Assembly (NCBI RefSeq): GCF_016026235.1
Contig: NZ_CP065613.1
Origin: Escherichia coli
GTDB lineage: Bacteria > Pseudomonadota > Gammaproteobacteria > Enterobacterales > Enterobacteriaceae
Length of the DNA stretch: 64,000 bases
Direction: 5' to 3' (one strand)
Positions 14,974 through 36,014 of this stretch are shown here, piece after piece. The notes below the pieces were generated by a model. The model was not told the DNA's origin, did no database searches, and was given only the letters and a program-made list of their open reading frames with translations. The translations under genes were made by a program, and so were the position numbers. Within the stretch, counting starts at the first letter, position 1. Every line of letters starts with the position of its first letter.

Positions 14974-15020
14974 ATTAGCAAGACATCTTTTTAGAACACG
15001 CTGAATAAATTGAGGTTGCT

Positions 15021-16460
15021 ATGTCTATTGTGGTGAAAAATAACATTCATTGGGTGGGTCAACGTGACTGGGAAGTACGAGATTTTCACGGCACGGAATA
15101 TAAAACGCTGCGCGGCAGCAGCTACAACAGCTACCTCATCCGCGAAGAAAAAAACGTGCTGATCGACACCGTCGACCATAAATTCAGCCGCGAATTTGTG
15201 CAGAACCTGCGTAATGAAATCGATCTGGCGGATATCGATTACATCGTGATTAACCATGCAGAAGAGGACCACGCTGGGGCGCTGACCGAACTGATGGCGC
15301 AAATTCCCGATACGCCGATCTACTGTACTGCCAACGCTATCGACTCGATAAATGGTCATCACCATCATCCGGAGTGGAATTTTAATGTGGTGAAAACTGG
15401 CGACACGCTGGATATCGGCAACGGCAAACAGCTCATTTTTGTCGAAACACCAATGCTGCACTGGCCGGACAGCATGATGACTTACCTGACAGGCGACGCG
15501 GTGCTGTTCAGTAACGATGCTTTCGGTCAGCACTACTGCGACGAGCATCTGTTCAACGATGAAGTGGATCAGACGGAGCTTTTCGAGCAGTGCCAGCGTT
15601 ACTACGCCAATATCCTGACGCCGTTCAGCCGCCTGGTAACGCCGAAAATTACCGAGATCCTGGGCTTTAACTTACCAGTCGATATGATAGCGACCTCCCA
15701 CGGCGTGGTCTGGCGCGATAACCCGACGCAAATTGTCGAGCTGTACCTGAAGTGGGCCGCTGATTATCAGGAAGACAGAATCACCATTTTCTACGACACC
15801 ATGTCGAATAACACCCGCATGATGGCTGACGCTATCGCCCAGGGGATTGCGGAAACCGACCCACGCGTGGCGGTGAAAATTTTCAACGTCGCCCGAAGCG
15901 ATAAAAACGAAATCCTGACCAATGTCTTCCGCTCAAAAGGCGTGCTGGTCGGCACTTCGACGATGAATAACGTGATGATGCCGAAAATCGCCGGGCTGGT
16001 TGAGGAGATGACCGGATTACGCTTCCGTAACAAACGCGCCAGTGCTTTCGGCTCTCACGGCTGGAGCGGCGGTGCGGTGGATCGTCTTTCCACGCGCCTG
16101 CAGGATGCGGGTTTCGAAATGTCGCTTAGCCTGAAAGCGAAATGGCGACCAGACCAGGACGCTCTGGAGTTATGCCGTGAACACGGTCGCGAAATCGCCC
16201 GTCAGTGGGCGCTCGCGCCGCTGCCGCAGAGCACGGTGAATACGGTAGTTAAAGAAGAAACCTCTGCCACCACGACGGATGACCTCGGCCCACGGATGCA
16301 GTGCAGCGTCTGCCAGTGGATTTACGATCCGGCAAAAGGCGAGCCAATGCAGGACGTTGCGCCAGGAACGCCGTGGAGTGAAGTCCCGGATAACTTCCTC
16401 TGCCCGGAATGCTCCCTCGGCAAAGACGTCTTTGAAGAACTGGCATCGGAGGCAAAATGA
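15021..16460 (+). CDS. norV: Anaerobic NO reductase flavorubredoxin (479 aa)
   Basis: Full-length ORF with C-terminal rubredoxin CxxC...CPEC motifs. Confidence 0.96.
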
Positions 16461-17590
16461 GTAACGGCATTGTGATCATTGGTTCGGGCTTCGCCGCCCG
16501 CCAACTAGTGAAAAATATTCGCAAACAGGACGCCAGTATTCCATTAACCCTGATTGCCGCCGACAGCATGGATGAGTACAACAAACCTGACCTCAGCCAT
16601 GTTATCAGTCAGGGGCAACGTGCCGACGACCTTACCCGCCAGACGGCAGGTGAATTTGCCGAGCAGTTTAATCTGCGCCTGTTTCCGCAAACCTGGGTGA
16701 CGGATATCGATGCAGAAGCCCATGTAGTAAAAAGCCAGAATAATCAGTGGCGATACGACAAGCTAGTGCTGGCAACCGGTGCCAGCGCCTTTGTCCCGCC
16801 AGTGCCTGGGCGTGAGTTAATGCTGACATTAAATAGTCAGCAAGAGTATCGCGCCTGTGAAACGCAACTGCGGGATGCACGACGCGTGTTGATTGTTGGC
16901 GGTGGTTTGATTGGTAGCGAACTGGCGATGGATTTTTGTCGTGCAGGCAAAATGGTTACGCTAATCGACAACGCTACCAGTATTCTGGCGTCGTTAATGC
17001 CACCGGAAGTAAGCAGTCGCTTGCAGCATCGGTTGACGGAGATGGGCGTTCATCTGCTGTTGAAATCTCAGTTGCAGGGGCTGGAAAAAACGGATTCTGG
17101 CATTCTGGCAACGCTGGACCGCCAGCGTAGTATCGAAGTGGATGCGGTAATTGCCGCCACCGGACTGCGCCCGGAAACCGCCCTGGCACGACGTGCCGGG
17201 CTGACGATTAATCGCGGCGTTTGCGTCGATAGTTATCTGCAAACCAGTAATGCCGATATTTACGCGCTGGGCGATTGCGCGGAAATTAACAGTCAGGTAT
17301 TGCCGTTCCTGCAGCCGATTCAACTTAGCGGGATGGTGCTGGCAAAAAATCTTCTCGGCAATAACACACCGCTGAAACTACCGGCGATGCTGGTGAAAAT
17401 CAAAACGCCGGAATTACCGCTGCATCTGGCAGGCGAAACCCAGCGTCAGGATTTACGCTGGCAGATTAATACCGAACGCCAGGGAATGGTGGCGCGCGGC
17501 GTTGACGATGCTGACCAGCTTCGCGCCTTTGTGGTCAGTGAGGATCGGATGAAAGAGGCATTTGGATTGTTGAAAACGTTGCCGGTGTAG
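16457..17590 (+). CDS. norW: Flavorubredoxin reductase (377 aa)
   Basis: FAD/NAD(P) motif [10 protein letters not shown]; 4-nt overlap with norV. Confidence 0.95.
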
Positions 17591-17595
17591 GTGGG

Positions 17596-17792
17596 CTACT
17601 GTGCCTAAAATGTCGGATGCGACGCTGGCGCGTCTTATCCGACCTACGGGGAGCGCATGTGTTGGTCACATAATGCGTTCATGTCACATACAGCTACTGT
17701 GCCCAAAATGTCGGATGCGACGCTGGCGCGTCTTATCCGACCTACGGGGACGCATGTGTAGGCCGGATAAGGCGTTTATGCCGCATCCGGCA
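17596..17792. repeat. REP/BIME cluster: two ~96-bp tandem units plus a terminal REP palindrome
   Basis: ctactgtgcc[t/c]aaaatgtcggatgcgacgctggcgcgtcttatccgacctacgggga occurs twice (17596, 17692); aggccggataaggcgtttatgccgcatccggca at 17759. Confidence 0.85.
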
Positions 17793-17818
17793 ATAATGGT
17801 GTTCAGATGCAACACGTT

Positions 17819-20071
17819 TTATCCGTTCTGGACTTCACCCGCTAACCAACGCGCCGCAGCAATAACCCCCTGCCCCAAAGACAAACCGCCATCACCCGCC
17901 GGTAAACTCTGTGGAAAGAGCAATGTGAAATCAGCGAGATAATGCGCCAGACGTGCACGCAGCAAACGGTTATGAATAACCCCGCCGCTAAATACCAGCG
18001 TAGTGATACCACGCATCGTGGCCTGCTCACGCATCAACGCGGCAAAACCCTGCGCCAGCGCATCATGAAACGCCCACGCGCGTTGATTAACCGAAGCCTG
18101 CCAGTTCAGCCACTGCTGCCAGAAAGTGGCGAGATCCAGTTGATTGTCCACCAGCGGTATCGTCACCGGATGCGTCACTCCGTCACATGAGGCTGCGAGC
18201 GCCTCCAGAGCACAAGCCGCTTCACCTTCATAACTTAACGTGGCTGGCGCACAGCCCAGTCCCGCCGCCACAGCATCGAACAAACGCCCACACGATGACG
18301 CCAGCGGCGCGTTAATTCCACGCTCAATAGCCCGCGCCAGCACGCTCCAGTTTTGCTGTTGCACACTTGCCGTTTCAGAGTAATTCTGCCACTCCGGCAC
18401 AAAGCGCAGGCACTGCGCCAGCAGGTTTCGCCACGGCTGCTTCGCCGCCAAATCGCCACCCTGAAGCGCCACTGCAGGCAAGCCGCCCAGGTGCTGGCAT
18501 TCGCGATAGTTCACCCGCAGGCACTCGCCGCCCCACAAAGCGCCGTTCTCCCCCATACCGATACCGTCGAGCGTCAACGCAATGACATCACCGCCATCCA
18601 GCGGCCACTGATGCTCTGCCAGACACGCCGCCGCATGAGCATGATGATGAAGCACCGTTTGTGTCGGCAGATTCATTTCGCGCGCCCACTGGCTGGAGAC
18701 ATAGCCCGGATGCGCGTCATGCACAACGTATTGCGGGGTGAAATCGTAGATGTTTTGCATCAGGCGTAACGCTTCGCGCCACTGCATCTGGATGCCATCG
18801 TCACTTAAATCGCCCAGATGCTGGCTCAACACCGCTTGTTCACCGCGCACCAGGCAGAAGGTATTTTTCAGATCCGCGCCGAGACACAGCACAGGCGGAA
18901 CATTTTTAAAGCCCGGAGGCAAAGCCAGCGCATCCGGCACATACCCCCGCGAACGGCGCAGCATTTCGCCGCTTTCGCGCACCACCGAATCATCCATCCG
19001 CTGCACGATGTCGCGGTTATGTATCAAGAATCCGTCGGCAATGCCCTGCAAATCCGCCAGCGCCTGTTCGTTGCTGATAGCCGGTGGTTTACCGCTCAGG
19101 TTGCCGGAGGTCATCACCAGCGGGCATTGCAGTTCCTGTAACAGCAAATGCTGGAGCGGGTTCGCAGGCAACATCACTCCGACTTCGTTAAGGCCAGGGG
19201 CGATATCATCACAAAGCTCAGGTACGTATTTTTTATCCACCAGCACAATCGGCGCAGCGGGCGTGGTAAGCAACTGGCGCGCAGCGTCTGGTAAACCGTC
19301 AGCCACTGGCAACATGACCGCCAGCGGTTTCGCCGGGCGATGTTTGCGCGCCCGAAGTGTCGCCACCGCGTTACTGTTACGTGCATCGCAGGCAAGATGA
19401 AATCCGCCAATCCCTTTGATGGCGACAATGTTGCCCATTTTTAACTGTGCGATAGCCGCCTGTAATGCCGCCTCTTGTTCCGCATGTTCACCATGACTTA
19501 CCCATTCAAGATGTGGGCCACACTCCGGGCAGGCCACCGGCTGGGCGTGGAAGCGACGATCGAGCGGGTCGCGGTACTCTTTATCACAGGCTGGACACAG
19601 CGGAAACGCCGCCATTACGGTAAACGGGCGGTCGTAAGGCATGGCGCGAATAATGGTGAAACGCGGGCCGCAGTGGGTACAGTTGATAAACGGATAACGA
19701 TAACGCCGCTCGCCTGGGGTATTCATTTCGGCAAGGCAAGCAGGGCAAGTAGCGGCATCGGGAACAATTTGCGTATTCATGGCACCTCCCGCGCTCTGGC
19801 GGATGGTGAACTCAGTGGGCAGTTGTGACCAGATGTACGGCTCACGCTCGACGCTATCAATACGCGCCAGCGGCGGGCAGTGCTGATGCAATTGAACAAG
19901 AAACGTTTCCGGGTCTTCCCGCAGCCGGACTTCTACGCCATCGCCGTCATTACAGACATCGCCGTGAAGATTTAATTGCTGTGCCAGCTGCCAGACAAAC
20001 GGACGAAAACCGACGCCCTGCACTTTGCCACGAATACGCAGTTGGACACCGCAAGATGTGTTTTTTGCCAT
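17819..20071 (-). CDS. hypF: Hydrogenase maturation carbamoyltransferase HypF (750 aa; start at MAKNTSCG)
   Basis: Acylphosphatase N-terminus and zinc-finger CxxC pairs; the track ORF has a 24-codon extension. Confidence 0.95.
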
Positions 20072-20223
20072 TGAGTTATTCCCGCCATCATGAATTGCGT
20101 AACCCGTCCAGCCGGACACGACAGCGTCGCATCCGGCAGTCACAGGTCGGCGATACCGCCCGCTCCGTATTCTACGAATATTTCCGGGAATTCCTTTGAT
20201 GCCAGAACAGTTCTGTAAGATTT

Positions 20224-20751
20224 TTAGAACATCAGCGCCGTACGGCGGCGTTTTTCTGCGCTCAGTTGTTCAAGTTTATTGCGATCGACACAAATTAGCG
20301 CATGGGTCGGGCAAGCCGCCATACACGCCGGGCCGTCTTCACGATGGTTGCACAGGTCGCATTTATTGGCTTCGGCTTTGTCAGCCCGTACATTCAGCCC
20401 CGCGCCGCTGTTGCGAATCACCGGACGTACCACCACTTCCATCGCGCCATACGGGCAAGCCACAACGCAGGTTTTGCAACCAATGCAACGTTCCTGCATC
20501 ACATGAACAAACCCTTTATCACGGCTGATAGCACCATTCGGGCAGACGTTAGCGCACGGTGCATCTTCACACTGACGGCAAACTGTCGCCGTGGAAATGT
20601 TCACACCTTTAATGACATGGATACGCGGTAAAAATGTTTCCGGGGTCAGCGATGCACAGTCCTGATTTTCCTGATGAGAAACCACGCACGCCACTTCACA
20701 GGTACGGCAACCAATACATTTACTCGCGTCAGCAATGATGAAACGGTTCAT
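20224..20751 (-). CDS. hydN: Fe-S electron-transport protein HydN (175 aa; start at MNRFIIAD)
   Basis: Multiple CxxCxxCxxxCP ferredoxin motifs; upstream of hypF. Confidence 0.92.
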
Positions 20752-20899
20752 CAAATTCTCCAGCAATGACAGTTAATGCGCCGATACATTCACAAATCAT
20801 GCCAGTTTTTAATTTGCTGTTATTTAAGGAAATTAATTTCTGTAATGCAGGAAAAAAGATGTCATCGACACTAGTGACGATGACATGTGATGACAATGT

Positions 20900-21910
20900 T
20901 TATCGCGAAAGAGCAATGAGTGAGTCGCGGCAGATCAGTTTTCCGCTGAAGGTTTTCGGCGGTGAGAAATCCCCGCCATCGAGCATAAAAATCAGCCGTC
21001 CAATAATTTCCTGAATCATCTCAGTCACCGGAATTTTTACGCTGGAGAGCGCCGGAACGATATAGGGGGCAATTGCGATATCATCGAATCCGATAACTGA
21101 CACCTGCTCTGGCACCGCTACGCCGCGCTCGTGTAACGCTTTCATCGCACCTATCGCCATATCGTCGTTACTGGCAACTAACGCGCTAAATTTAGCCCCA
21201 CGTTCGAGCAACATTTCTACCCCTTCGGCCCCGCTGGCAGGCGTCCATTTACCGTTAGCGATAAGTTTTTCATTGAGCGCAATACCATGCTGCGCCAGCG
21301 CGTCTTTATACCCGGCAAGACGTTCAATGCTGGTGGGGGAATCCATCGAGCCGGTAAGGAAAGCAATCTCCTGATGCCCGGCGTTTATCAACTCTGCCAC
21401 GGCATTAAAGCTGGTCTGTTTATGATCGCACCAGACGCTATGGCTGCTATTTTTGCGCAGGCGGCGATTAAGCACCATTATCGGCTGACTGTGCGCGTCA
21501 ATAATGTCATCGATCTCATCCACGCTTAAAAAACGCGGGTAAATCATAATGGCGTCGCAGCGCAAATCCAGCAGATACTGAATCGCCTGGCGCTCTTCTT
21601 CGGCGCTGTGTTTACCATCTGCCAATAGCAACTGCCGCCCTTTCTCTTCCGCCATTCGCGCGGCATGAAAGAGTAATTCACTAAAATAAATGCCGTGGTA
21701 AAGCGTGTTGGTCACTACCAGCCCCAGCGTCTGAGTACTCTTCGCCGACAGATTGCGCGCCAGCAAGTTTGGACGGTAACCGCTCTCTTCTACCGCCTGA
21801 AACACGCGATCTTTAGTCTCCTGGCTGACGTAGCCATTACCTGAAAGCACGCGGGAAACGGTCGCTTTTGAAACCCCGGCGCGCTTCGCCACTTCCAGCA
21901 TCGTCGTCAT
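20900..21910 (-). CDS. ascG: LacI/GalR-family repressor of the cryptic asc operon (336 aa)
   Basis: HTH MTTMLEVAKRAGVSKATVSRVLSG; divergent from ascFB. Confidence 0.93.
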   Translation of the reverse strand: MTTMLEVAKRAGVSKATVSRVLSGNGYVSQETKDRVFQAVEESGYRPNLLARNLSAKSTQTLGLVVTNTLYHGIYFSELLFHAARMAEEKGRQLLLADGKHSAEEERQAIQYLLDLRCDAIMIYPRFLSVDEIDDIIDAHSQPIMVLNRRLRKNSSHSVWCDHKQTSFNAVAELINAGHQEIAFLTGSMDSPTSIERLAGYKDALAQHGIALNEKLIANGKWTPASGAEGVEMLLERGAKFSALVASNDDMAIGAMKALHERGVAVPEQVSVIGFDDIAIAPYIVPALSSVKIPVTEMIQEIIGRLIFMLDGGDFSPPKTFSGKLICRDSLIALSR

Positions 21911-22169
21911 CATTTTCATCCCTTTACACGCAATCAACGCAGTGTACTGCACCGTTTACCGATTGTCCTTGCGCAATTGGCGGGAAAAATATTCAGGTGA
22001 CCGGTTTCACAAATATAAAAAATGAACAATTAACTCTCTTGCTTATTTGGTGACAACTATTCATGATTTTGTGAAACCGGTTTCTTAATTCCGTTTCAGC
22101 ATCGGCATTTTTCCGTCACGTCGACTGATAACAACTACATCTACCCTACTGATAACAGGATAAAATCCG

Positions 22170-25060
<2,891 letters not shown>

Positions 25061-25281
25061 GTAACCATGCCGGATGCGGCGTGAACGCCTTATCCGGCCT
25101 ACATGTCGCACGAACCAGGTAGGCCCGATAAGCGTAGCGTATCGGGCAATTTGGCGTTTGGCATCAGTTAGTAACCGCGCCGGATGCGGCGTGATGAATG
25201 CCTTATCGGGCCTAGTGTCGCACGAACCAGGTAGGCCCGATAAGCGCAGCGCATCGGGCAATCTGGCGTTTGCTATCAGTT
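25061..25281. repeat. REP/BIME cluster: two ~110-bp tandem units each holding two REP palindromes
   Basis: gtaacc..gccggatgcggcgtga..ccttatc[c/g]ggcc..aggcccgataagcg.agcg.atcgggcaa repeated at 25061 and 25171. Confidence 0.85.
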
Positions 25282-25329
25282 CTGATTCCCTCATCAAGAA
25301 CATCCCTGTCCTGATTCCTTACTGAAAAA

Positions 25330-25800
25330 CTACTCTTCTTCCACCGCTAACTGCGCGAAACCGCCGTTCCCTTCCCAGCCTTCCAGACGTTGATAAACGG
25401 TTTCAACCGCATCTTTAATCGGCTGGGTCATCGGGTAGTAAAAGCCGACGATACCCAGCTGGATGCCGAGGAAAATCACTTCGCCAATATCTTCTTTCAA
25501 CTGATCGATAAGGTAGTTCAACGGCATGTTATGGGTAGTCATCATAAACATCTCGGCGATATCATCCGGGTCGATGATGCGGATTTCGCCGGGGTTTAGC
25601 CCCATATCAGTAGCGTCAACAATCAGTAACCGCGTAGGGCGCAGTTCACGGATGGCGACGATGTCGTTTTCCGGTGCACTACCGCCGTCAATCACCACCC
25701 AGTTGCCTTTCGGCGCGGCGGCGCACTTTTCCGCCAGCAGCGGGCCTGCGCCATCATCACCCATCATGCTATTGCCAACACAGAGTAAAACGTCAGTCAC
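25330..25800 (-). CDS. hycI: Hydrogenase 3 maturation endopeptidase (156 aa)
   Basis: Last gene of hyc operon; size and sequence. Confidence 0.93.
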   Translation of the reverse strand: MTDVLLCVGNSMMGDDGAGPLLAEKCAAAPKGNWVVIDGGSAPENDIVAIRELRPTRLLIVDATDMGLNPGEIRIIDPDDIAEMFMMTTHNMPLNYLIDQLKEDIGEVIFLGIQLGIVGFYYPMTQPIKDAVETVYQRLEGWEGNGGFAQLAVEEE

Positions 25801-26203
25801 GCAGTCTCCTCACCATCAAATAGATGGCGTTTTCCTGATGAATATCATGCAGCATACTTAACAGCATTGTACTCCATTCCTTCTGCTGCGAAGTTTGCGC
25901 TGCCCGGGCTTTATCGAATGCATTGGCCAGCATCGGCACATGGTTAATGTCGATGACGATCTCACCATATTTCGGCACACCTTCCATTTTGCGGCGGGCT
26001 TCGCTGCCCGCCTCCAGAGTGGCAATCCATGCCAGATATTCATCCCACGGGCAGGTGAGCGCCGCTTCCAGGCAATCGATAACCCCAAGGTGGTGACCAA
26101 TCGCCAGGCTGTAATAGACCACCTGCTGCGCCTCGGCGGGCGTGGCATCGTTCTCATCAATAAATTTACGGCTCAGTTGACTGAACACCACCTTTTCACT
26201 CAT
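25793..26203 (-). CDS. hycH: Formate hydrogenlyase maturation protein HycH (136 aa)
   Basis: Operon position. Confidence 0.9.
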
Positions 26204-26967
26204 CGGATACGCGCCTCTTCAACAACATGATTCAGATGGCTGACAATCTCGTTCAGACGCGGATCGTTTTCCGCTTCCAGCCAGCGTGCAACCTGTTCTT
26301 CGCCCTGCCCTAACTGTGTAAGGTAATCATCGGCAATCTGACGACCGTAACGATAACCCGCCAGTCGACGTGCTTCGCGATCCACTTTCACACGCAGCGG
26401 CTGCACCATATCGCCATGCAGGATCTCCGCCGGTTGTTCATCCTGCTCACCCGGCCCACGGGCGTGAATTTTTTGCTCCAGCAGGCCGAGCGCCATTGCA
26501 AAGCCGTACAGCGTGGCAGCAGGCGTTGGCGGGCAGCCAGGGATATAAACATCCACCGGGACGATTTTATCCGTACCGCCCCACACGCAGTAGAGATCGT
26601 GGAAGATCCCGCCGCTGTTACCGCAGGCACCGTAGGAGATACAAATTTTCGGGTCCGGCGCGGACTGCCACGCACGCAGCGCAGGGGATCGCATTGCACG
26701 GGTGACCGCGCCGGTAAACAGTAAAATATCCGCATGACGCGGTGAAGGAACGACTTTAATGCCGAAGCGTTCTGCATCAAACAGCGGCGAAAGCGTGGCG
26801 AAAATTTCGATTTCGCAGCCGTTGCAGCCGCCGCAGTCCACGCGGTAAACGTAGGCAGAGCGTTTGATTTTTTTCAGTAACGACGCCTTCATACTGGCGA
26901 TGGATTCATCCACCGTCATCGGGACCGGAATGCCGTTGGCGTCACGGGGGCCTAATAAATTGCTCAT
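26200..26967 (-). CDS. hycG: Hydrogenase 3 small subunit, NuoB-like (255 aa)
   Basis: Cys motifs GGCNGCE, GCPP. Confidence 0.93.
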
Positions 26968-27509
26968 CAGATGGCCTCTTTCATATGGCGAGTCAGTTCA
27001 ATACGGTCGGACGGCACCAGGCATTTCTGGCGCTTACATTCCGGGCAAGTCTCAAAGCTTTCGCGGTGGTTTTCCGCGCGGCTGTCGCCGTTGTGCTTAA
27101 GCAGCGCAATGGCGTAGTCGATCTCTTTCTGAACGGCGAAAGGACGATTGCAGACGCGGCAGTTGCACAGCGCGAAGCGGGACTGTTGCAGGAAGTCTTC
27201 TTTCTTCCACACCGCCAGTTCGTACTCTTGCGACAGTTTGATCGCCGCCGTCGGGCAAACTTCTTCGCAGCGTCCACAGAAGATGCAACGCCCGAGATTA
27301 AACTCCCACGCAAGCTCTCCTGTGGCGAGGTCAGTTTCAACCGTTAAGGCGTTTGACGGGCAGGCATTGACGCAGGCCGCGCAGCCGATGCACTGCTGCG
27401 GGTTCTGCTCTGGCTTACCACGGAAGTTTTTATCAACCGCAATCGGCTCCAGCGGATAAGACGAGGTCGCCGTGCCGGTTTTGATAACTTTTTTGATAAA
27501 GGTAAACAT
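26967..27509 (-). CDS. hycF: Formate hydrogenlyase 2x[4Fe-4S] subunit (180 aa)
   Basis: Two CxxCxxCxxxCP motifs. Confidence 0.93.
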
Positions 27510-27518
27510 GGCGATTCC

Positions 27519-29228
27519 TTATTTCAGCGGCGAGTTTTTACGCTCAATGCTGTAGCGCTCGAGTTCTTTGTACGGCACCACTTTGCTCTTCTTCTTACGC
27601 ACATCGACTACGGTCATGCGGTCGGTACAGGAGTAGCAAGGGTCCAGGCTACCGATAATCAGCGGCGCATCGGAAACGGTGTTGCCGCGCAGCATGTAGC
27701 GCAGGGTCGGCCAGTTCGCGTAGGTCGCGGCACGGCAGCGCCAGCGGTACAGCTTCTGGTTGTCGCCGGTCATGCTCCAGTGGATATCATCGCCGCGCGG
27801 CGCTTCGGCAAAGCCCAGCGCAAAGCGGTGCGGAATGTAGGTAAAGCCTTCCACCATCAGTGGGCCACCCGGCAGGTTATCCAGACCGTAGTCGATCATG
27901 TTCAGCGCGGTATAGACTTCGTTGATACGCACTTTCAGACGGGAAATAACGTCGCACCCCTGCTCGCTGTGGACTTCCATTGGCAGCAGGCCATAGCCGA
28001 CAAACGGGTGATCGGCACGGGTATCACGGGCGTGACCGCTGGCACGGACCATCGGGCCGACATTACTGAAATCGCGGGCGATTTCCGGGTCCAGACGACC
28101 AATGCCGACGGTGCGTTGTTCCATGTTCGGTGTGCTCAGCAGCACATCCACCAGCTCCTGCACTTCACGACGCATCTGTTGCGCCAGCTGGCGGGTCTGG
28201 ATCATGTCATCTTTCAGCAGATCGCGACGAATCCCGCCGATCAGGTTCAGGCCGTAGGTTTTACGCGCACCGGTAAGGATCTCTGCCATTTTCATGGAGG
28301 TTTCACGCACGCGGAAGAACTGCATAAAGCCGGAGTCGAAGCCGGTAAAGTGGCAGGCGAGGCCGAGGTTGAGCAGATGCGAGTGCAGGCGTTCCACCTC
28401 CAGCAGAATGGCGCGGATCATCTGCGCACGTTCTGGCACCTGAATACCCATCGCGTTTTCCACCGACGTGGTGTAGGCGGTGCTGTGAGCAAAGCCGCAG
28501 ATCCCGCACACACGGTCAGAGAGGAAGGTCACTTCGTTATAACCCATGCGGGTTTCCGCCAGTTTTTCCATGCCGCGATGGACATAGAACAGGCGGTAGT
28601 CGGCGTCGATAATGTTTTCGCCATCGACGAACAGACGGAAGTGGCCCGGTTCGTCAGAAGTGACGTGCAGCGGACCAATCGGCACGACGTTGTTTTTCTT
28701 GTCGCCCAGTTCGTTGATGAACTCGTAGGTTTCAGCATCGGTGGTCGGTGCCGGACGCTGACGATAATCCATGCTGTCTTTACGCAGCGGATAAAGTTCA
28801 TCCGGCCAGTCATCCGGCAGCACCAGACGGCGTTCATCCGGCAGACCAACCGGAATCAATCCGTACATATCGCGCACTTCGCGCTCGCCCCACACCGCCG
28901 CCGGAACGCGCGGCGTTACGGACGGATATTCCGGTTTGTTGGCGTCAACTTCGACGCGCACCGTTACCCAACACTTAGTCCCCTTCTCCATCGACAGCAC
29001 GTAATAAACGGCGTAATGACCATTCAGTTTGCGTTCGTCGTTACCAAAAAGCACCGACAGCCAGCCACCCTGTTTGTAGTAGAGAAACTCCACCACTTCT
29101 GGCAGATAGTTCACCTTCACGGTCACGGTCAGCTGATCTTTGGTCTGCCAGGCGTGGTCCAGCACGACGCCCGGAAATGCCTCATTCAGCGCGGCGAGAT
29201 AATGTTGACCTAATTTTTCTTCAGACAT
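27519..29228 (-). CDS. hycE: Hydrogenase 3 [NiFe] large subunit (569 aa; start at MSEEKLGQ)
   Basis: N-terminal RxCGxCxxxH and C-terminal DPCxxC Ni-binding motifs. Confidence 0.95.
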   Translation of the reverse strand: MSEEKLGQHYLAALNEAFPGVVLDHAWQTKDQLTVTVKVNYLPEVVEFLYYKQGGWLSVLFGNDERKLNGHYAVYYVLSMEKGTKCWVTVRVEVDANKPEYPSVTPRVPAAVWGEREVRDMYGLIPVGLPDERRLVLPDDWPDELYPLRKDSMDYRQRPAPTTDAETYEFINELGDKKNNVVPIGPLHVTSDEPGHFRLFVDGENIIDADYRLFYVHRGMEKLAETRMGYNEVTFLSDRVCGICGFAHSTAYTTSVENAMGIQVPERAQMIRAILLEVERLHSHLLNLGLACHFTGFDSGFMQFFRVRETSMKMAEILTGARKTYGLNLIGGIRRDLLKDDMIQTRQLAQQMRREVQELVDVLLSTPNMEQRTVGIGRLDPEIARDFSNVGPMVRASGHARDTRADHPFVGYGLLPMEVHSEQGCDVISRLKVRINEVYTALNMIDYGLDNLPGGPLMVEGFTYIPHRFALGFAEAPRGDDIHWSMTGDNQKLYRWRCRAATYANWPTLRYMLRGNTVSDAPLIIGSLDPCYSCTDRMTVVDVRKKKSKVVPYKELERYSIERKNSPLK

Positions 29229-29245
29229 GCTCAAACTCTCTTTAA

Positions 29246-30169
29246 TCACGCCGCCAGCAAGGAGACGAACGCTAAAAATGCAAAGCCAAACCCAGCCCAG
29301 GTAATGCGCGGAGTAATATCAAGACGCAGACGGGCCATGCTGTTTTCGAACAGCGCGATAACCAGGACGCCGACCACCAGTTTGACGATGGCAATCACCA
29401 GCGCCAGCAGCAGCCCACCGGCGGTGAAGGTTTCCATCTGTCCCCACGGGATAAATACGCCGACGAACATCTGCAGCACCACCAGCTGTTTCAGGCTGAT
29501 ACCCCATTTCATGACGCCAAAGCCGCTGCCGCTGTACTCAGAGAGCGGACCTTCCTGCAACTCCTGCTCAGCTTCCGCCAGGTCGAACGGCAGTTTGCCC
29601 ATTTCGATAAAGGTGGCGAACGCACAGGCACAAAGCGCCAGTACCAGCGGGATGCTCTGGCTCAGCGGCCAGTGATAAACGGTGTCGGTGATGTTGCTGA
29701 TGTTGGTGGAACCGGCAACCTGTGCGGCAACCCACAGACCAAGCAGCAGCATCGGTTCGACCAGCACGCCAAGCATCGCTTCACGACTCGCGCCGATAGC
29801 GGTAAACGGGCTACCGGTATCCAGACCAGAAATGGCAAAGAAGAAACGCGCGATGGCAAAGAGATACAGTAAGGTGATCAAATCACCCAGTTGCGGCAGC
29901 GGAGAACCGACGGTCACCACCGGCAGCGCAGTAGCGATAGTCAGCATGACGCCCACCATCACATACGGCGTCAGGCGGAACACCCAGCCGGAGGCATCCG
30001 GGCCAACGCTCTGGCGGCCCAGCAGTTTGAAAATGTCACGATACTCCTGCAACACACCCGGCCCGCGACGGTTATGCAAGCGGGCGCGCGCCACGCGGGT
30101 AATACCGGAGAGCAGCGGCGCAACGGCAAATAACACCAGCGCCTGAATTAACGGATATAAAAAACTCAT
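29246..30169 (-). CDS. hycD: Formate hydrogenlyase membrane subunit, NuoH-like (307 aa)
   Basis: Polytopic membrane protein in operon. Confidence 0.93.
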   Translation of the reverse strand: MSFLYPLIQALVLFAVAPLLSGITRVARARLHNRRGPGVLQEYRDIFKLLGRQSVGPDASGWVFRLTPYVMVGVMLTIATALPVVTVGSPLPQLGDLITLLYLFAIARFFFAISGLDTGSPFTAIGASREAMLGVLVEPMLLLGLWVAAQVAGSTNISNITDTVYHWPLSQSIPLVLALCACAFATFIEMGKLPFDLAEAEQELQEGPLSEYSGSGFGVMKWGISLKQLVVLQMFVGVFIPWGQMETFTAGGLLLALVIAIVKLVVGVLVIALFENSMARLRLDITPRITWAGFGFAFLAFVSLLAA

Positions 30170-30171
30170 TC

Positions 30172-31998
30172 TCAGGCTCCTCGTGAAACAATAATCACCA
30201 CCAGTACCGCCAGTTCAACCAGCGCCATCCGGCGGAACAGCAACGCACTCCCCTCGCACTGCCAGCCCGGCACCAGCGACACCGGATTCAGCCATTTGCG
30301 CAGTTTCAGCACCGGCGCAAACGCCTGTTTCACCGGCATGGCAAAACCGTGAGCGGTAATCACCATTGATTTTTCGTGGTCGTAGCCGCACACCCAGGCC
30401 GCGCCGCGGGAACGCGACGGCAAACGATCGCCTTTGCAAATCGCCATAATGATGAATGGCAGCAGCGGGCAGGCAATCAGCAGCAACGTGATCATTGGTT
30501 GAGAAACAGTGGTGTTAGCAGGCTCCAGCGGCAGAGGTACAGCAGCAGAGAGCATCGGCAGCAGCCACGGCGCAGCAACACCGCCAATTACGCAGCAAAT
30601 CGCCAGTGCCACTACGCTTACGCTCATCAGGATCGGTGCACAGGAGGCGTTTTCGGCTTCTTTGGTACGCGGCGCGCCGAGGAACGTGACGCCATAGACT
30701 TTCGCCATACACATCACCGCCAGCGCACCGGTAATTGCCAGACCCACAGCGAGCAGCGGCCCCAGCAGACGGGCAACAAACGCGCCACTATTGCTCAGTT
30801 TGAAAAAGGATTGATAGATAACCCATTCCCCGGCAAAACCGTTCAGTGGCGGCAGCGCAGCCATTGCCATCAGCCCGACTAACATGGCGATGGAGATAAC
30901 CGGCATTTTCTTGCCAATACCACCGAGTTTTTCGATATCGCGATGACCGGTACGGAACCAGACGCTCCCCGCCCCGAGGAACAGTACGCTTTTGAACAGG
31001 CTATGGTTAAGCAGATGGTACAGACCACCGACCAGACCAAGGGCAATCAGCGCCGGTTGTTCGAGCGCGATACCCGTTACGCCAGCGCCCAGCCCCAGCA
31101 GGATAATGCCGATATTTTCCAGGGTGTGGTAAGCCAGCAGGCGCTGGATGTTGTGTTCCATCAACGCATACAGACCACCGACGAACGCGGTGATCATGCC
31201 GAGCACCAGCAGCGCGATCCCCCACCACAGCGGTGCATTACCGCCCAGCAGCGACAGGGTTAAAATGCCCAGCAGGCCAATTTTCATGACTACCGTAGAA
31301 AACAACGCGGCAGCTGGCGCAGAGGCGTTCGCATGTGCCTGCGGCACCCAGCCGTGCAGCGGAATAATCCCGGCCAGCAGGCCAAAGCCAATCACACCGA
31401 GCAGCCAGATATCGGAACCGAGCGGCAGCTGTTGCATACGCATATCCAGCAGGCGCAGATCCAGCGTGCCGTAACGCTGCCACAGCAGCCAGCAAGCAAT
31501 CGCCAGCAGCAGAGTGCCAAGACGCCCCAGCGCAAACCACAGTTTGCCCTCTTTGCTGTTGCTGGTGAGGAACACCGCACACAAGGCCATGACTTCGGCC
31601 ATTACCACGAACATGCCGAGGTTGCTGGCAATGACGGCGCAGACGGCGGCAGCCATCAACATATTGATCTGCAAGCCGTTGCACTTCACCTGCGCGTGGC
31701 GATGCCAGTCAATGTTGTAGAGGCTGACAAACAGACCGCACAGACCGAGCGTAATCAGCCAAATCGCGTTAAGCGGAGAGATTTGCACATCGTAGCTTAC
31801 CAGCGACAGCGCACCGCTCACGCCAACCGCGCCAGTCAGTACAGTGAAGCCCGCGGCTGCCGTATACAGACTACCAACCGCGCCGCCAATTCCGGCTATC
31901 CAGCCGCTTAGCGCCTTTTGAAAAGAAAAGAGAAATGCCAGAACAGCGGCGGCGACAAACCACGCCACGCCGCTATTGATCAGGGAAATTGCGCTCAT
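30172..31998 (-). CDS. hycC: Formate hydrogenlyase membrane subunit, NuoL/antiporter-like (608 aa)
   Basis: Polytopic membrane protein in operon. Confidence 0.93.
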   Translation of the reverse strand: MSAISLINSGVAWFVAAAVLAFLFSFQKALSGWIAGIGGAVGSLYTAAAGFTVLTGAVGVSGALSLVSYDVQISPLNAIWLITLGLCGLFVSLYNIDWHRHAQVKCNGLQINMLMAAAVCAVIASNLGMFVVMAEVMALCAVFLTSNSKEGKLWFALGRLGTLLLAIACWLLWQRYGTLDLRLLDMRMQQLPLGSDIWLLGVIGFGLLAGIIPLHGWVPQAHANASAPAAALFSTVVMKIGLLGILTLSLLGGNAPLWWGIALLVLGMITAFVGGLYALMEHNIQRLLAYHTLENIGIILLGLGAGVTGIALEQPALIALGLVGGLYHLLNHSLFKSVLFLGAGSVWFRTGHRDIEKLGGIGKKMPVISIAMLVGLMAMAALPPLNGFAGEWVIYQSFFKLSNSGAFVARLLGPLLAVGLAITGALAVMCMAKVYGVTFLGAPRTKEAENASCAPILMSVSVVALAICCVIGGVAAPWLLPMLSAAVPLPLEPANTTVSQPMITLLLIACPLLPFIIMAICKGDRLPSRSRGAAWVCGYDHEKSMVITAHGFAMPVKQAFAPVLKLRKWLNPVSLVPGWQCEGSALLFRRMALVELAVLVVIIVSRGA

Positions 31999-32606
31999 TT
32001 AGCCTCTCCACTTTGAGCCTGCTGAAACAAGGTGAGATCGCCAAAGTCCGTGTTAAAGGTCAGCTCACGCTTACGTTTGCTGACGCGGGCGATATCGGTG
32101 TTATCCACCAGATGCAGGGCTTTAGTCGGGCACATCCGCACGCAGGCCGGACCTTGTTCATCAAAGCTACAAAGGTCACATTTGACGGCGATCGCGCGAA
32201 TACCTGGCACCCAGTCAAGCAATGTGCTGACACGCGCCGGAGCAGGCGGTGCCGGTGGCGCTTTCGGGGTATTGGCGTTTGCCGGAATATCCAGCGGACG
32301 GCTGCCGGAAAATTCAATTGCGCCAAACGGGCAGGCGATGCCGCACAGTTTGCAGCTTACGCACAGACTTTCATTCAACTGCACGGCCCCATCAACGCGG
32401 GTGATGGCGTTAACCGGGCAGACCACCGCGCAGGGTGCATCTTCACAGTGGTGACAGAGCTGCGGCGCAGATTCTTTTTCATTTAGCATCACTCTCAGGC
32501 GCGGCATTGATTGCAGGCCGTGCTGGCGATGCGTCTCTGAACAGGCGGCCTCACAAGTGTGGCAGCCGATACAGAGCGTGGAGTCAGCAATTACAAAACG
32601 ATTCAC
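31995..32606 (-). CDS. hycB: Formate hydrogenlyase Fe-S subunit (203 aa)
   Basis: Four Cys clusters. Confidence 0.93.
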   Translation of the reverse strand: MNRFVIADSTLCIGCHTCEAACSETHRQHGLQSMPRLRVMLNEKESAPQLCHHCEDAPCAVVCPVNAITRVDGAVQLNESLCVSCKLCGIACPFGAIEFSGSRPLDIPANANTPKAPPAPPAPARVSTLLDWVPGIRAIAVKCDLCSFDEQGPACVRMCPTKALHLVDNTDIARVSKRKRELTFNTDFGDLTLFQQAQSGEAK

Positions 32607-32730
32607 CAGGCATTCCTCAGGTGATTGTCATTTTTGACGAAAACATGCCGATGAAATGTCATTTTCGACACTCATCGACACGCCCATCCCCAAACAGGCG
32701 TAACGCCTGCAAAACGGGCAAAGCCTCAGC

Positions 32731-33192
32731 TCATGCTGCCGGGCTTTGTCCCTTTACCAGTTGGCTTAAATTCACCGGCACATTGTTTTCAATAGCGGTG
32801 TATAAGCTGTCGTAAACGCCAGCGATTTTTTCGAGATAGTGTTCCAGAACCTGTTCGCGATCGCGGATGTTGACCTTGCCATCAATCATGCCGTCAATGC
32901 TCAGTTGCGCCTGCGCAATCCGCTGTTTGTCTTCGCCATCTTTTGTTTCGACGTAATACTCGATGGTGTGGCTGTTAAAGCCATCCGCCAGGGTGACGTA
33001 AATACGAAAATGTTCAAAAAGGACGAAACAGAGTTCTTTGTCCGGCGCGCAGCTCATGGCGTGATGCAGGCGCGCTTTCGATAACGTGATCCCCTGAACC
33101 AGCGAATTGCAGTAGATGTGCCACTGGTCCTGTAGGCGACGATGCCGCTGTGCGATGTAATCGGCTTTCTCGCTTATTTCCCAAATAGTCAT
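32731..33192 (-). CDS. hycA: Formate hydrogenlyase regulatory protein HycA (153 aa)
   Basis: First gene of hyc operon, divergent from hypA. Confidence 0.92.
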   Translation of the reverse strand: MTIWEISEKADYIAQRHRRLQDQWHIYCNSLVQGITLSKARLHHAMSCAPDKELCFVLFEHFRIYVTLADGFNSHTIEYYVETKDGEDKQRIAQAQLSIDGMIDGKVNIRDREQVLEHYLEKIAGVYDSLYTAIENNVPVNLSQLVKGQSPAA

Positions 33193-33229
33193 TGTCAGGT
33201 TACCCGTTTAACAGAGATGCCAGCTTTAA

Positions 33230-33244
33230 GCATTTTTTGTGCCA
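33230..33244 (-). promoter_or_regulatory. sigma54 promoter of the hyc operon (minus strand TGGCAC-N5-aTGC)
   Basis: Plus strand gcattttttgtgcca is the reverse complement of tggcacaaaaaatgc, about 40 nt upstream of hycA. Confidence 0.7.
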
Positions 33245-33357
33245 ACTTTTAATTTATTGTTATTAAAGCGATTTTTAAGATTTTGGTGAATTTCGTCGCC
33301 GTGTCGACGTGTCATTTCGACATCATCGACATTATTCACTGTAGGGATAATCAACAC

Positions 33358-33373
33358 TGGCACAATTATTGCT
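33358..33373 (+). promoter_or_regulatory. sigma54 promoter of the hyp operon (TGGCAC-N5-TTGCT)
   Basis: tggcacaattattgct, 31 nt upstream of the hypA ATG. Confidence 0.75.
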
Positions 33374-33403
33374 TGTAGCTGGCAATAGTTAATGGGAGGC
33401 GAT

Positions 33404-33754
33404 ATGCACGAAATAACCCTCTGCCAACGGGCACTGGAATTGATCGAACAGCAGGCCGCAAAACACGGCGCAAAACGCGTAACTGGGGTCTGGCTCAAAA
33501 TTGGCGCATTTTCTTGTGTCGAAACCAGCTCTCTTGCCTTTTGTTTTGATCTGGTTTGCCGCGGCAGCGTGGCGGAAGGTTGTAAACTGCACCTCGAAGA
33601 ACAAGAGGCCGAATGCTGGTGTGAAACATGCCAACAGTATGTGACGCTACTGACCCAGCGAGTCCGCCGCTGTCCACAGTGTCATGGTGACATGCTACAG
33701 ATTGTGGCAGACGACGGTTTACAGATTCGGCGGATAGAAATAGACCAGGAGTGA
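33404..33754 (+). CDS. hypA: Hydrogenase nickel-insertion protein HypA (116 aa; start at MHEITLCQ)
   Basis: Zn-finger CxxC...CPQC. Confidence 0.95.
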   Translation: MHEITLCQRALELIEQQAAKHGAKRVTGVWLKIGAFSCVETSSLAFCFDLVCRGSVAEGCKLHLEEQEAECWCETCQQYVTLLTQRVRRCPQCHGDMLQIVADDGLQIRRIEIDQE

Positions 33755-33757
33755 GCG

Positions 33758-34630
33758 ATGTGTACAACATGCGGTTGCGGTGAAGGCAACCTGTATATCG
33801 AGGGTGATGAACATAACCCTCATTCCGCGTTTCGTAGCGCGCCATTTGCCCCGGCGGCACGCCCGAAGATGAAAATCACCGGCATTAAAACGCCTGAATT
33901 TACCCCCAGCCAGACTGAAGAAGGCGACCTGCATTACGGTCATGGCGAAGCGGGCACTCACGCGCCGGGCATGAGCCAGCGCCGGATGCTGGAAGTCGAA
34001 ATTGACGTGCTGGACAAAAATAACCGTCTGGCTGAACGCAACCGCGCGCGCTTTGCTGCCCGCAAGCAACTGGTGCTCAACCTGGTTTCCAGCCCTGGTT
34101 CCGGTAAAACCACCCTGCTGACGGAAACCTTAATGCGCCTGAAAGACAGCGTTCCGTGCGCGGTTATTGAAGGCGATCAGCAAACCGTGAACGATGCCGC
34201 ACGCATTCGCGCTACCGGCACACCAGCGATTCAGGTGAACACCGGTAAAGGCTGCCATCTTGACGCACAGATGATTGCCGACGCCGCACCGCGTCTGCCA
34301 CTGGACGATAACGGTATTCTGTTTATCGAAAACGTTGGCAACCTCGTATGCCCGGCCAGCTTCGATCTCGGTGAAAAACACAAAGTGGCGGTGCTTTCCG
34401 TTACCGAAGGTGAAGACAAACCGCTGAAATATCCGCATATGTTTGCCGCCGCCTCGCTGATGCTGCTCAACAAAGTTGACCTGTTGCCGTATCTCAACTT
34501 TGACGTTGAGAAGTGCATCGCCTGCGCCCGCGAAGTCAATCCAGAAATTGAAATCATCCTTATTTCCGCCACCAGCGGTGAAGGGATGGACCAGTGGCTG
34601 AACTGGCTGGAGACACAGCGATGTGCATAG
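33758..34630 (+). CDS. hypB: Hydrogenase nickel-incorporation GTPase HypB (290 aa)
   Basis: N-terminal MCTTCGCG metal site, P-loop GSPGSGKTT. Confidence 0.95.
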
Positions 34631-34893
34631 GCGTTCCCGGCCAGATCCGCACCATTGACGGCAACCAGGCGAAAGTCGACGTCTGCGGCATTCAGCGCGA
34701 TGTCGATTTAACGTTAGTCGGCAGCTGCGATGAAAACGGTCAGCCGCGCGTGGGCCAGTGGGTACTGGTACACGTTGGCTTTGCCATGAGCGTAATTAAT
34801 GAAGCCGAAGCACGCGACACTCTCGACGCCTTACAAAACATGTTTGACGTTGAGCCGGATGTCGGCGCGCTGTTGTATGGCGAGGAAAAATAA
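34621..34893 (+). CDS. hypC: Hydrogenase maturation chaperone HypC (90 aa; start at MCIGVPGQ)
   Basis: Signature MC(L/I)(G/A)(L/V)P N-terminus. Confidence 0.95.
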
Positions 34894-36014
34894 TGCGTTT
34901 TGTTGATGAATATCGCGCGCCGGAACAGGTGATGCAGTTAATTGAGCATCTGCGCGAACGTGCTTCACATCTCTCTTACACCGCCGAACGCCCTCTGCGG
35001 ATTATGGAAGTGTGCGGTGGTCATACCCACGCCATTTTTAAATTCGGCCTCGACCAGTTACTGCCTGAAAATGTTGAGTTTATCCACGGTCCGGGTTGCC
35101 CAGTGTGCGTACTGCCGATGGGCAGAATCGACACCTGCGTGGAGATTGCCAGCCATCCGGAAGTCATCTTCTGTACCTTTGGCGACGCCATGCGCGTGCC
35201 GGGGAAACAGGGATCGCTGTTGCAGGCAAAAGCACGCGGTGCCGATGTGCGCATCGTTTACTCGCCGATGGATGCGTTGAAACTGGCGCAGGAGAATCCA
35301 ACCCGCAAAGTGGTGTTCTTCGGCTTAGGTTTTGAAACCACCATGCCGACCACCGCCATCACTCTGCAACAGGCGAAAGCGCGTGATGTGCAGAATTTTT
35401 ACTTCTTCTGCCAGCACATTACGCTTATCCCGACGCTTCGCAGTTTGCTGGAACAGCCGGATAACGGTATCGACGCGTTCCTCGCGCCGGGCCACGTTAG
35501 TATGGTTATCGGCACTGATGCCTATAATTTTATCGCCAGCGATTTTCATCGTCCGCTGGTGGTCGCTGGTTTCGAACCCCTTGATCTACTGCAAGGCGTG
35601 GTCATGCTGGTGGAGCAGAAAATAGCGGCCCACAGCAAGGTAGAGAATCAGTATCGTCGGGTGGTACCGGATGCCGGTAACCTGCTGGCGCAACAGGCGA
35701 TTGCCGATGTGTTCTGTGTCAACGGCGACAGCGAATGGCGCGGCTTAGGCGTGATTGAATCTTCTGGCGTGCACCTGACGCCGGATTATCAACGATTCGA
35801 TGCCGAAGCACATTTCCGCCCGGCACCGCAGCAGGTCTGCGATGACCCGCGTGCGCGTTGTGGTGAAGTATTAACGGGCAAATGTAAGCCGCATCAATGC
35901 CCGCTGTTTGGTAACACCTGTAATCCTCAAACCGCGTTTGGTGCGCTGATGGTTTCCTCCGAAGGAGCGTGCGCCGCGTGGTATCAGTATCGTCAGCAGG
36001 AGAGTGAAGCGTGA
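34893..36014 (+). CDS. hypD: Hydrogenase maturation factor HypD (373 aa)
   Basis: CGxH, GPGCPVC and CPVC motifs. Confidence 0.95.
   Translation: MRFVDEYRAPEQVMQLIEHLRERASHLSYTAERPLRIMEVCGGHTHAIFKFGLDQLLPENVEFIHGPGCPVCVLPMGRIDTCVEIASHPEVIFCTFGDAMRVPGKQGSLLQAKARGADVRIVYSPMDALKLAQENPTRKVVFFGLGFETTMPTTAITLQQAKARDVQNFYFFCQHITLIPTLRSLLEQPDNGIDAFLAPGHVSMVIGTDAYNFIASDFHRPLVVAGFEPLDLLQGVVMLVEQKIAAHSKVENQYRRVVPDAGNLLAQQAIADVFCVNGDSEWRGLGVIESSGVHLTPDYQRFDAEAHFRPAPQQVCDDPRARCGEVLTGKCKPHQCPLFGNTCNPQTAFGALMVSSEGACAAWYQYRQQESEA

Follow-up and report, generated by a model that had tools for sequence, protein, structure and literature searches.

A two-copy REP array between ascB and hycI of Escherichia coli is very probably a rare allele of an old, normally one-unit BIME locus

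When two repeat units stand in tandem and differ in sequence, do their differences record the time since one was copied from the other? The question is raised by the spacer between the genes ascB and hycI in a 64,000-nucleotide stretch of Escherichia coli DNA (contig NZ_CP065613.1; called the window here, with position 1 at its first letter). A sequence-only reading of this DNA had described two units of about 110 nt, each with two REP palindromes of opposite orientation, and had concluded from the differences between them that the duplication was not very recent.

The description of the array holds. Tandem Repeats Finder (TRF) reported one array, at 25056–25281, with a period of 112, 2.0 copies, 87% matches and a score of 341, and the inverted repeats in the spacer agree with it on two units of this length in tandem, each with a pair of opposite REP palindromes. 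A gapped alignment of unit against unit left 98 of 112 columns identical, the others being taken up by 10 substitutions, one 3-nt insertion and one 1-nt deletion; identity between the units is 87–91%, and the probability of a comparable match anywhere in the window by chance is about 1e-39. The borders are also as first described, the list of open reading frames and the gene names (taken from RefSeq records carrying the same sequence) agreeing that the array starts at or just after the ascB stop codon, TAA at 25058–25060, and ends 48 nt before that of hycI, which lies at 25330–25332 and is convergent with ascB. The array is extragenic, as expected of REPs, lying between these two stop codons. 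The K-12 RefSeq annotation has no repeat feature at the locus or in the neighbouring 11 kb, and no curated REP name; in the RefSeq records inspected, the two-unit allele carries no annotation and the ascB–hycI spacer contains no annotated CDS.

Each unit runs through a head of 8–9 nt, a Y REP, a 16-nt S linker, an inverted Z2 REP and a 22-nt tail, so that the REP order across the array is Y(+), Z2(−), Y′(+), Z2(−) (Table 1). The palindrome arms of unit 1 lie at 25069–25082/25085–25098 and 25123–25133/25137–25147, with equivalents in unit 2. The GTAG/CTAC tetranucleotides that characterize REPs are present in the array (CTAC at 25099–25102, GTAG at 25119–25122 and 25231–25234) except in REP3, where CTAC is shortened to CTA (CTA-G at 25212–25215) and which also has a 3-nt insertion in its loop and two changes in its stem. 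With CTAC/GTAG gone and its stem mismatched, REP3 is a REP in decay and makes up half of the added unit. Over 13 nt, its 3′ half is perfectly complementary to the Z2 REPs. At the join between the units (..ATCAGTT|AGTAACC..), microhomology is limited to the 3-nt AGT, one base from the join and present beside it at 25056–25058 and 25166–25168.

Table 1. Features of the ascB–hycI spacer and related features of the window (positions in the window; S linker, short linker between the two REPs of a unit).
Feature	Position	Strand	Basis or remark
ascB (6-phospho-beta-glucosidase)	23636..25060	+	homologous RefSeq ascB is 1425 nt; listed ORF 23624..25060
Head of unit 1, GTAACCAT	25061..25068	+	8 nt between ascB stop and first REP
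REP1, Y-type, ends CTAC, GCCGGATGCGGCGTGAACGCCTTATCCGGCCTAC	25069..25102	+	inverted repeat; hairpin −21.3 kcal/mol
S linker of unit 1, 16 nt, between REP1 CTAC and REP2 GTAG	25103..25118		sequence dissection
REP2, inverted Z2-type, GTAG start on + strand	25119..25147	−	inverted repeat; best score Z2
Tail of unit 1, AATTTGGCGTTTGGCATCAGTT	25148..25169		pairs with S linker, extending the Z2 hairpin
Duplication junction and head of unit 2, AGTAACCGC	25170..25178		direct repeat; copy of 25060–25068
REP3, degenerate Y REP (Y′)	25179..25214	+	unit alignment, inverted repeats, hairpin −18.0 kcal/mol
S linker of unit 2, 16 nt	25215..25230		sequence dissection
REP4, inverted Z2-type, 70 nt from hycI stop codon	25231..25259	−	inverted repeat; best score Z2
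Tail of unit 2, AATCTGGCGTTTGCTATCAGTT, end of repeat	25260..25281		TRF and dissection
Unique 48-nt spacer up to hycI stop codon	25282..25329		strain comparison and direct repeat in window
hycI (hydrogenase 3 maturation protease)	25330..25800	−	ORF list and RefSeq annotation
Z1-like REPs of the norW–hypF BIME	17612–17647 and 17710–17745		

REP1 agreed at 34 of 34 positions with a Y consensus after Gilson and Bachellier, not taken from a database; against consensus sequences of the same origin, REP2 and REP4 scored best as Z2, and REP3 scored best as Y but was degenerate. The palindromes fold as stem-loops, as REPs, which are imperfect palindromes of 20–40 nt, should (hairpin energies for Y and Y′ are in Table 1). 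The segments made up of S linker, Z2 REP and tail fold at −28.6 and −25.4 kcal/mol in units 1 and 2; because the tail pairs with the linker, the Z2 REP lies within an extended hairpin. Unit 1 folds mainly as two separate hairpins, and in unit 2 pairing of REP3 with REP4 makes one long hairpin possible. On both strands the spacer folds far more stably than shuffled controls do (z = −5.5 and −3.6). The elements are dispersed, a REP-containing query giving a median of at least 38 matches per E. coli genome; a megablast query of 25260–25345, which includes the tail, was single-copy per genome and gave no sign of the tail as a dispersed BIME motif, the 22-nt motif being shorter than the 28-nt seed. 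Other REPs in the window lie at 17612, 17710, 17758 and 52064; a generic REP pattern with a fixed 4-nt loop, which misses Y REPs, found Z1-like REPs at 17.6 kb and 52 kb.

These features match the published definition of BIME-2, in which y and z2 REPs are joined by a short S linker and occur in tandem copies whose number at a given locus varies between strains (PMC3333891). Here y and z2 REPs alternate, both units have a 16-nt S linker with no long L linker bearing an IHF site, and there are two copies compared with one in K-12 and about 45% of genomes. The 3′-end intergenic position and the repetition of whole units are likewise those of BIME-2. We are therefore confident that the spacer separating the convergent operons ascFB and hyc is taken up by a two-copy, BIME-2-type array of Y, 16-nt S, inverted Z2, 22-nt tail and 8–9-nt head, and that this array is a rare variant in copy number of an old BIME locus where one unit is the norm; the class assignment is made on REP classes, linker and tandem copies, the formal definition being completed by flanking-motif classes (s, l, r). 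It differs from other BIME-2 loci in having only two units, which are 87–91% identical whereas the published copies are described as ‘well conserved’ (PMC3333891), and from BIME-2 in general in that its second Y REP is degenerate (no CTAC, mismatched stem) and in that the unit reaches the ascB stop codon. Like a REPIN, each unit has an inverted REP pair with a short spacer, and the two REPs of unit 2 can pair through the perfect complement; unlike in a REPIN, Y and Z2 are different REP classes, unit 1 forms mainly separate hairpins, no RAYT gene is nearby and the second unit arose at the locus, not by insertion at a new site.

We then asked how common the two-unit allele is among 5426 complete E. 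coli genomes, in a census by megablast with a 28-nt seed in which allele classes were read among the matches listed and the two-unit count rests on the junction at 25140–25215, so that two-unit arrays made of other allele types might add to it. This 76-nt junction segment was found in three genomes, FDAARGOS_943, EC2641 and GF3-3. EC2641, GF3-3 and one metagenome contig carry the full 269-nt spacer without a difference, and that of FDAARGOS_943, a genome with 99.9% identity to the window across 40 kb, is the window spacer with a 5-nt deletion in REP2; the array sequence is thus invariant in four of five carriers. A short spacer form was found in 2417 of the 5426 genomes (about 45%), K-12 included, and the short-form matches inspected had one unit in all but the three carriers, with a spacer of 157–158 nt as in K-12. 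In a separate megablast with 20 kb of the window (15000–35000), the best 15 matches had 98.1–98.3% identity and FDAARGOS_943 was missing from them; the ranking there seems to be affected by its alignment being split at the BIMEs and at a deletion in hycC. FDAARGOS_943 is without about 74 nt of window 30144–30217, at the hycD/hycC junction, and in its annotation hycC is a pseudogene, marked incomplete; the hycC copy in the window appears intact.

Genomes outside the short form lack the Y REP, carry islands with higBA or an ORF, or have an insertion of IS621. The Y REP (the equivalent of window 25067–25099) is missing in the O157:H7 allele and in that of strain 98218. The loss in these alleles is clean, leaving GTAACC|TAC.., with CC|TAC at the right break and CC at the left break; CC|TAC is the published iREP-II cleavage site of TnpAREP. 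The alleles of HS4 and N68 have no S linker, and in those of EC7215 and UMB200201_11 it is inverted. In the inverted form the equivalent of window 25103–25118 is the reverse complement, ATAGTTCGTGCGACATG replacing ATGTCGCACGAACCAGG/CATG, an inversion of the hairpin loop that presumably came about through exchange between the inverted CTAC..GTAG feet. The linker-inverted allele of UMB200201_11 also has an IS621 element, of the IS110 family, directly after the GTAG of its Z2 REP (window ~25119–25123); IS621 targets REP sequences.

In further genomes the site holds islands of 0.7–1.8 kb with higBA and/or an ORF of 253 aa. Many E. coli strains, HS4 among them, have this ORF of about 760 nt (a 253-aa hypothetical protein) between the BIME unit and hycI, with or without the higBA toxin–antitoxin genes. 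In E. albertii and in E. coli E69 there is one unit, followed by the ~760-nt ORF (253 aa) before hycI, and the presence of one unit in both indicates that a BIME at this site predates the split of the species. By this comparison the ancestral number of units is likely to have been one. The 48-nt stretch at 25282–25329 is probably a scar left by deletion of the ~760-nt ORF, as suggested by ACATCCC at both ends of it in HS4 and by a direct repeat in the window (25279–25301/25308–25330).

A second BIME in the window also varies in copy number. The norW–hypF spacer (window ~17590–17791) has two direct units of 98 nt, each with a Z1-like REP (Table 1), and after them an inverted Y REP; in the near-identical relatives FDAARGOS_943 and EC2641 there are three units (358–359 nt compared with 260 nt between the same anchors), and the K-12 spacer is only 127 nt long. 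TRF run on 17.4–18.0 kb reported no array, although a direct repeat of 98 nt is easily seen there. The change in copy number at norW–hypF is thus very recent, in support of fast BIME dynamics.

To return to the age of the ascB–hycI array, the 12 differences between its units were scored against 15 single-unit alleles. Ten of the 12 are states seen as well in other Escherichia strains, in alleles with a single unit, and only T25140 and C25178 are private to the array. All five changes in REP3 are found together in the single-unit allele of Escherichia sp. E1V33 (a GTDB species representative), the Z2 and tail states of unit 1 (T25135, T25151, G25161 and C25162) are present in E. albertii, E69 or K-12-type alleles, and the states of unit 2 are present in 13P484A-type alleles. 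The correspondence extends to whole spacers. Removing 110 nt from the window spacer yields that of E1V33, all 159 nt matching, with a deletion start that can be placed anywhere in 25069–25085, and those of 13P484A and K12a-DK are the window spacer minus 112 nt (start 25104–25135), save 2 bases of the 8-nt head. Among complete E. coli genomes, no single-unit allele with the inner variants was found, only the three array carriers matching 25140–25215. The coding flanks of E1V33 are 2.8% diverged from the window right up to the spacer, against which zero differences in the spacer have P ~0.011, and GF3-3, 1.6% diverged overall, is identical over 471 nt around the array (P ~5e-4).

The ten shared states, together with the single-unit matches, argue that the divergence between the units mostly did not accumulate in place. 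Either it was imported through unequal or homologous exchange with other alleles or the single-unit alleles are derived from the array by deletion, and the age of the array is therefore unreadable from unit divergence. Thus the sequence-only reading was right that the units differ at several sites, 12 by our count, but its step from there to a duplication that is ‘not very recent’ does not follow, ten of the 12 states being shared with single-unit alleles; the comparison of the ascB–hycI spacer across strains that it had proposed is what removes unit divergence as a measure of age, E1V33 having the window spacer less one unit. Two readings are left: the array was put together as a chimera from alleles that already existed, or deletion in it gave rise to these single-unit alleles. 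Under both readings the spacer comparisons suggest that small recombination patches carried spacer haplotypes between backgrounds. The least likely history is a simple duplication followed by mutation in place.

The reading that we favour, giving it about an even chance, is that the array is chimeric, two different alleles of one BIME locus having exchanged unequally or allelic recombination having reshaped it, and that the E1V33 and 13P484A types are crossover or deletion products that moved as patches of <500 nt. The second unit would have come from an exchange, illegitimate or unequal, in which the tail was joined to the base that follows the ascB stop codon (..ATCAGTT to AGTAACC..), with the AGT microhomology next to the junction. 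Since the Z2 REP and tail of unit 1 are ancestral-like and the Y′, Z2 and tail of unit 2 are like those of E1V33 and 13P484A, either two different alleles took part in the exchange or allelic recombination followed later. Homologous crossover between the units, which share identical blocks of 31 nt and 16 nt, would then regenerate single-unit alleles.

A second explanation, which we hold to be possible though doubtful, is that an old array was ancestral to some of the single-unit alleles and lost a unit repeatedly by homologous crossover, in the 5′ Y REP to give the E1V33 type and in the linker/Z2 region to give the 13P484A type, and the products were spread by recombination. This would account for spacers that equal that of the window minus 110 nt without mismatch (E1V33) or minus 112 nt with 2 mismatches (13P484A and K12a-DK), and for an identical E1V33 spacer within flanks that are so diverged. 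However, E. albertii and E69, as outgroups, carry a single unit, the states derived in unit 2 (AATCT and GCGCAG) are widespread in island-bearing alleles that are unlikely to be descendants of the array, and an array this old would have been kept by only three of the 5426 genomes.

The activities of TnpAREP in vitro and models of BIME amplification have been published (PMC3333891), and this REP-associated transposase (TnpAREP/RAYT) could have added the second unit in the way that those models propose, by C|T cleavage and strand transfer. On the bottom strand a C|T falls precisely at 25060|25061, and another is found on the top strand, 1 nt from the right end of the repeat; the breaks in the Y-less alleles are at CC|TAC, which has been published as the iREP-II site. 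We nevertheless think this route unlikely: C|T dinucleotides are frequent and so are weak evidence, too common to be diagnostic of TnpAREP at the junction, the duplicated segment contains a head and a tail that are apparently specific to the locus, and the window, where one would not be expected, is without a RAYT gene.

One old duplication in place, with the 12 differences then gathered independently in both copies, would agree with an identity of 87–91% between the units and with the two states private to the array, T25140 and C25178. It is made improbable by the ten differences that are states of single-unit alleles, by the occurrence of the five Y′ changes as a block in E1V33 and by the invariance of the array in four of its five carriers; moreover, the changes all fall in the inner halves of the array, and the outer halves equal the 13P484A-type allele save 2 head bases.

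We can give very little credence to the array being a functional small RNA (naRNA-like, an HU-binding REP RNA) or a source of small proteins. An Rfam search of 24000–26500 at a permissive E-value gave only sub-threshold matches to naRNA4 (RF02564), all to one REP, and a distinct RNA family was rejected on this result. The partial match at 25055–25099 (E = 3.6e-5) scored 40.6 bits, below the gathering score of 59.5. The array thus resembles naRNA4, the nucleoid-associated RNA derived from REP325, in sequence and structure over a single REP, but naRNA4 is itself REP-derived, and what the match shows is common descent from REPs, without making the array a member of the family. Scans found no promoter-like site in the ascB–hycI spacer and no site resembling an intrinsic terminator on either strand of 25061–25329, and an independent transcription unit in the spacer was rejected on these grounds. 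Two ORFs of 83 aa on the ORF list span the array, at 25052..25303 (−) and 25074..25325 (+). They are spurious, being ORFs such as gene-calling programs may report from REP arrays: the RefSeq records inspected have no CDS there, and the unit deletion found in most strains breaks both ORFs.

The weakest alternative, that a single unit was falsely expanded during assembly, has practically no standing: the check for such an artefact that accompanied the first description ends in its exclusion, as the same array is present in independent assemblies (three complete genomes from different laboratories and countries, and one metagenome contig), and the units differ at 12 sites with a period shorter than a sequencing read.

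What the array does is likely to be what REPs do in general, through hairpins at 3′ ends, a REP near a stop codon or a site for gyrase. REPs protect upstream mRNA from 3′ exonucleases, according to statements in PMC3333891 and PMC12306157. By analogy, the four hairpins at the 3′ ends of the two convergent transcripts may impede such enzymes; given convergent operons and no intrinsic terminator in the spacer, the REP hairpins are the only strong structures at both 3′ ends. Where a REP lies <16 nt from a stop codon, it is reported to stall ribosomes during termination and so to reduce translation (Liang, Rudd and Deutscher 2015, summarised in PMC12306157). REP1 resembles these REPs, starting 8 nt after the ascB stop codon, and by the same analogy would stall terminating ribosomes at ascB and lower its translation. 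The effect would be unchanged by the duplication, and because the 8-nt position is common to the single-unit allele it does not explain the second unit. Gyrase cleavage sites are enriched for BIME-2 elements, where they fall mainly at Y REPs (PMC6379681), which makes the array DNA a candidate gyrase site to which the second unit would add one degenerate Y REP. The ascFB operon is annotated as cryptic in K-12, so an effect on the expression of ascB may be irrelevant. We saw no evidence that the extra unit is adaptive; it probably has little or no selective effect.

Arrays of this kind are already known, REP/BIME arrays and their copy-number polymorphism between strains having been described for decades; the literature includes tandem BIMEs whose number varies between strains at one locus (PMC3333891). 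What is new, and only mildly so, is that allelic mosaicism and not age lies behind the divergence of the two units. On its own the array is of little importance, and it indicates no new function. Its junction sequence is a marker of a rare haplotype (three of 5426 complete genomes). For annotation, it is a caution that divergence between tandem REP units cannot date a duplication and that 83-aa ORFs across such an array are spurious. The locus shows cleanly, on a small scale, the evolution of a BIME site, one unit having been kept since before the split of E. coli and E. albertii, with duplication, REP loss, linker inversion, IS621 insertion and the gain or loss of islands as later events at the same site. 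If the array is indeed a chimera of existing alleles, divergence between units would be no clock, and BIME copy number and sequence would evolve largely through the homologous recombination of the host, not through RAYT or mutation in place.
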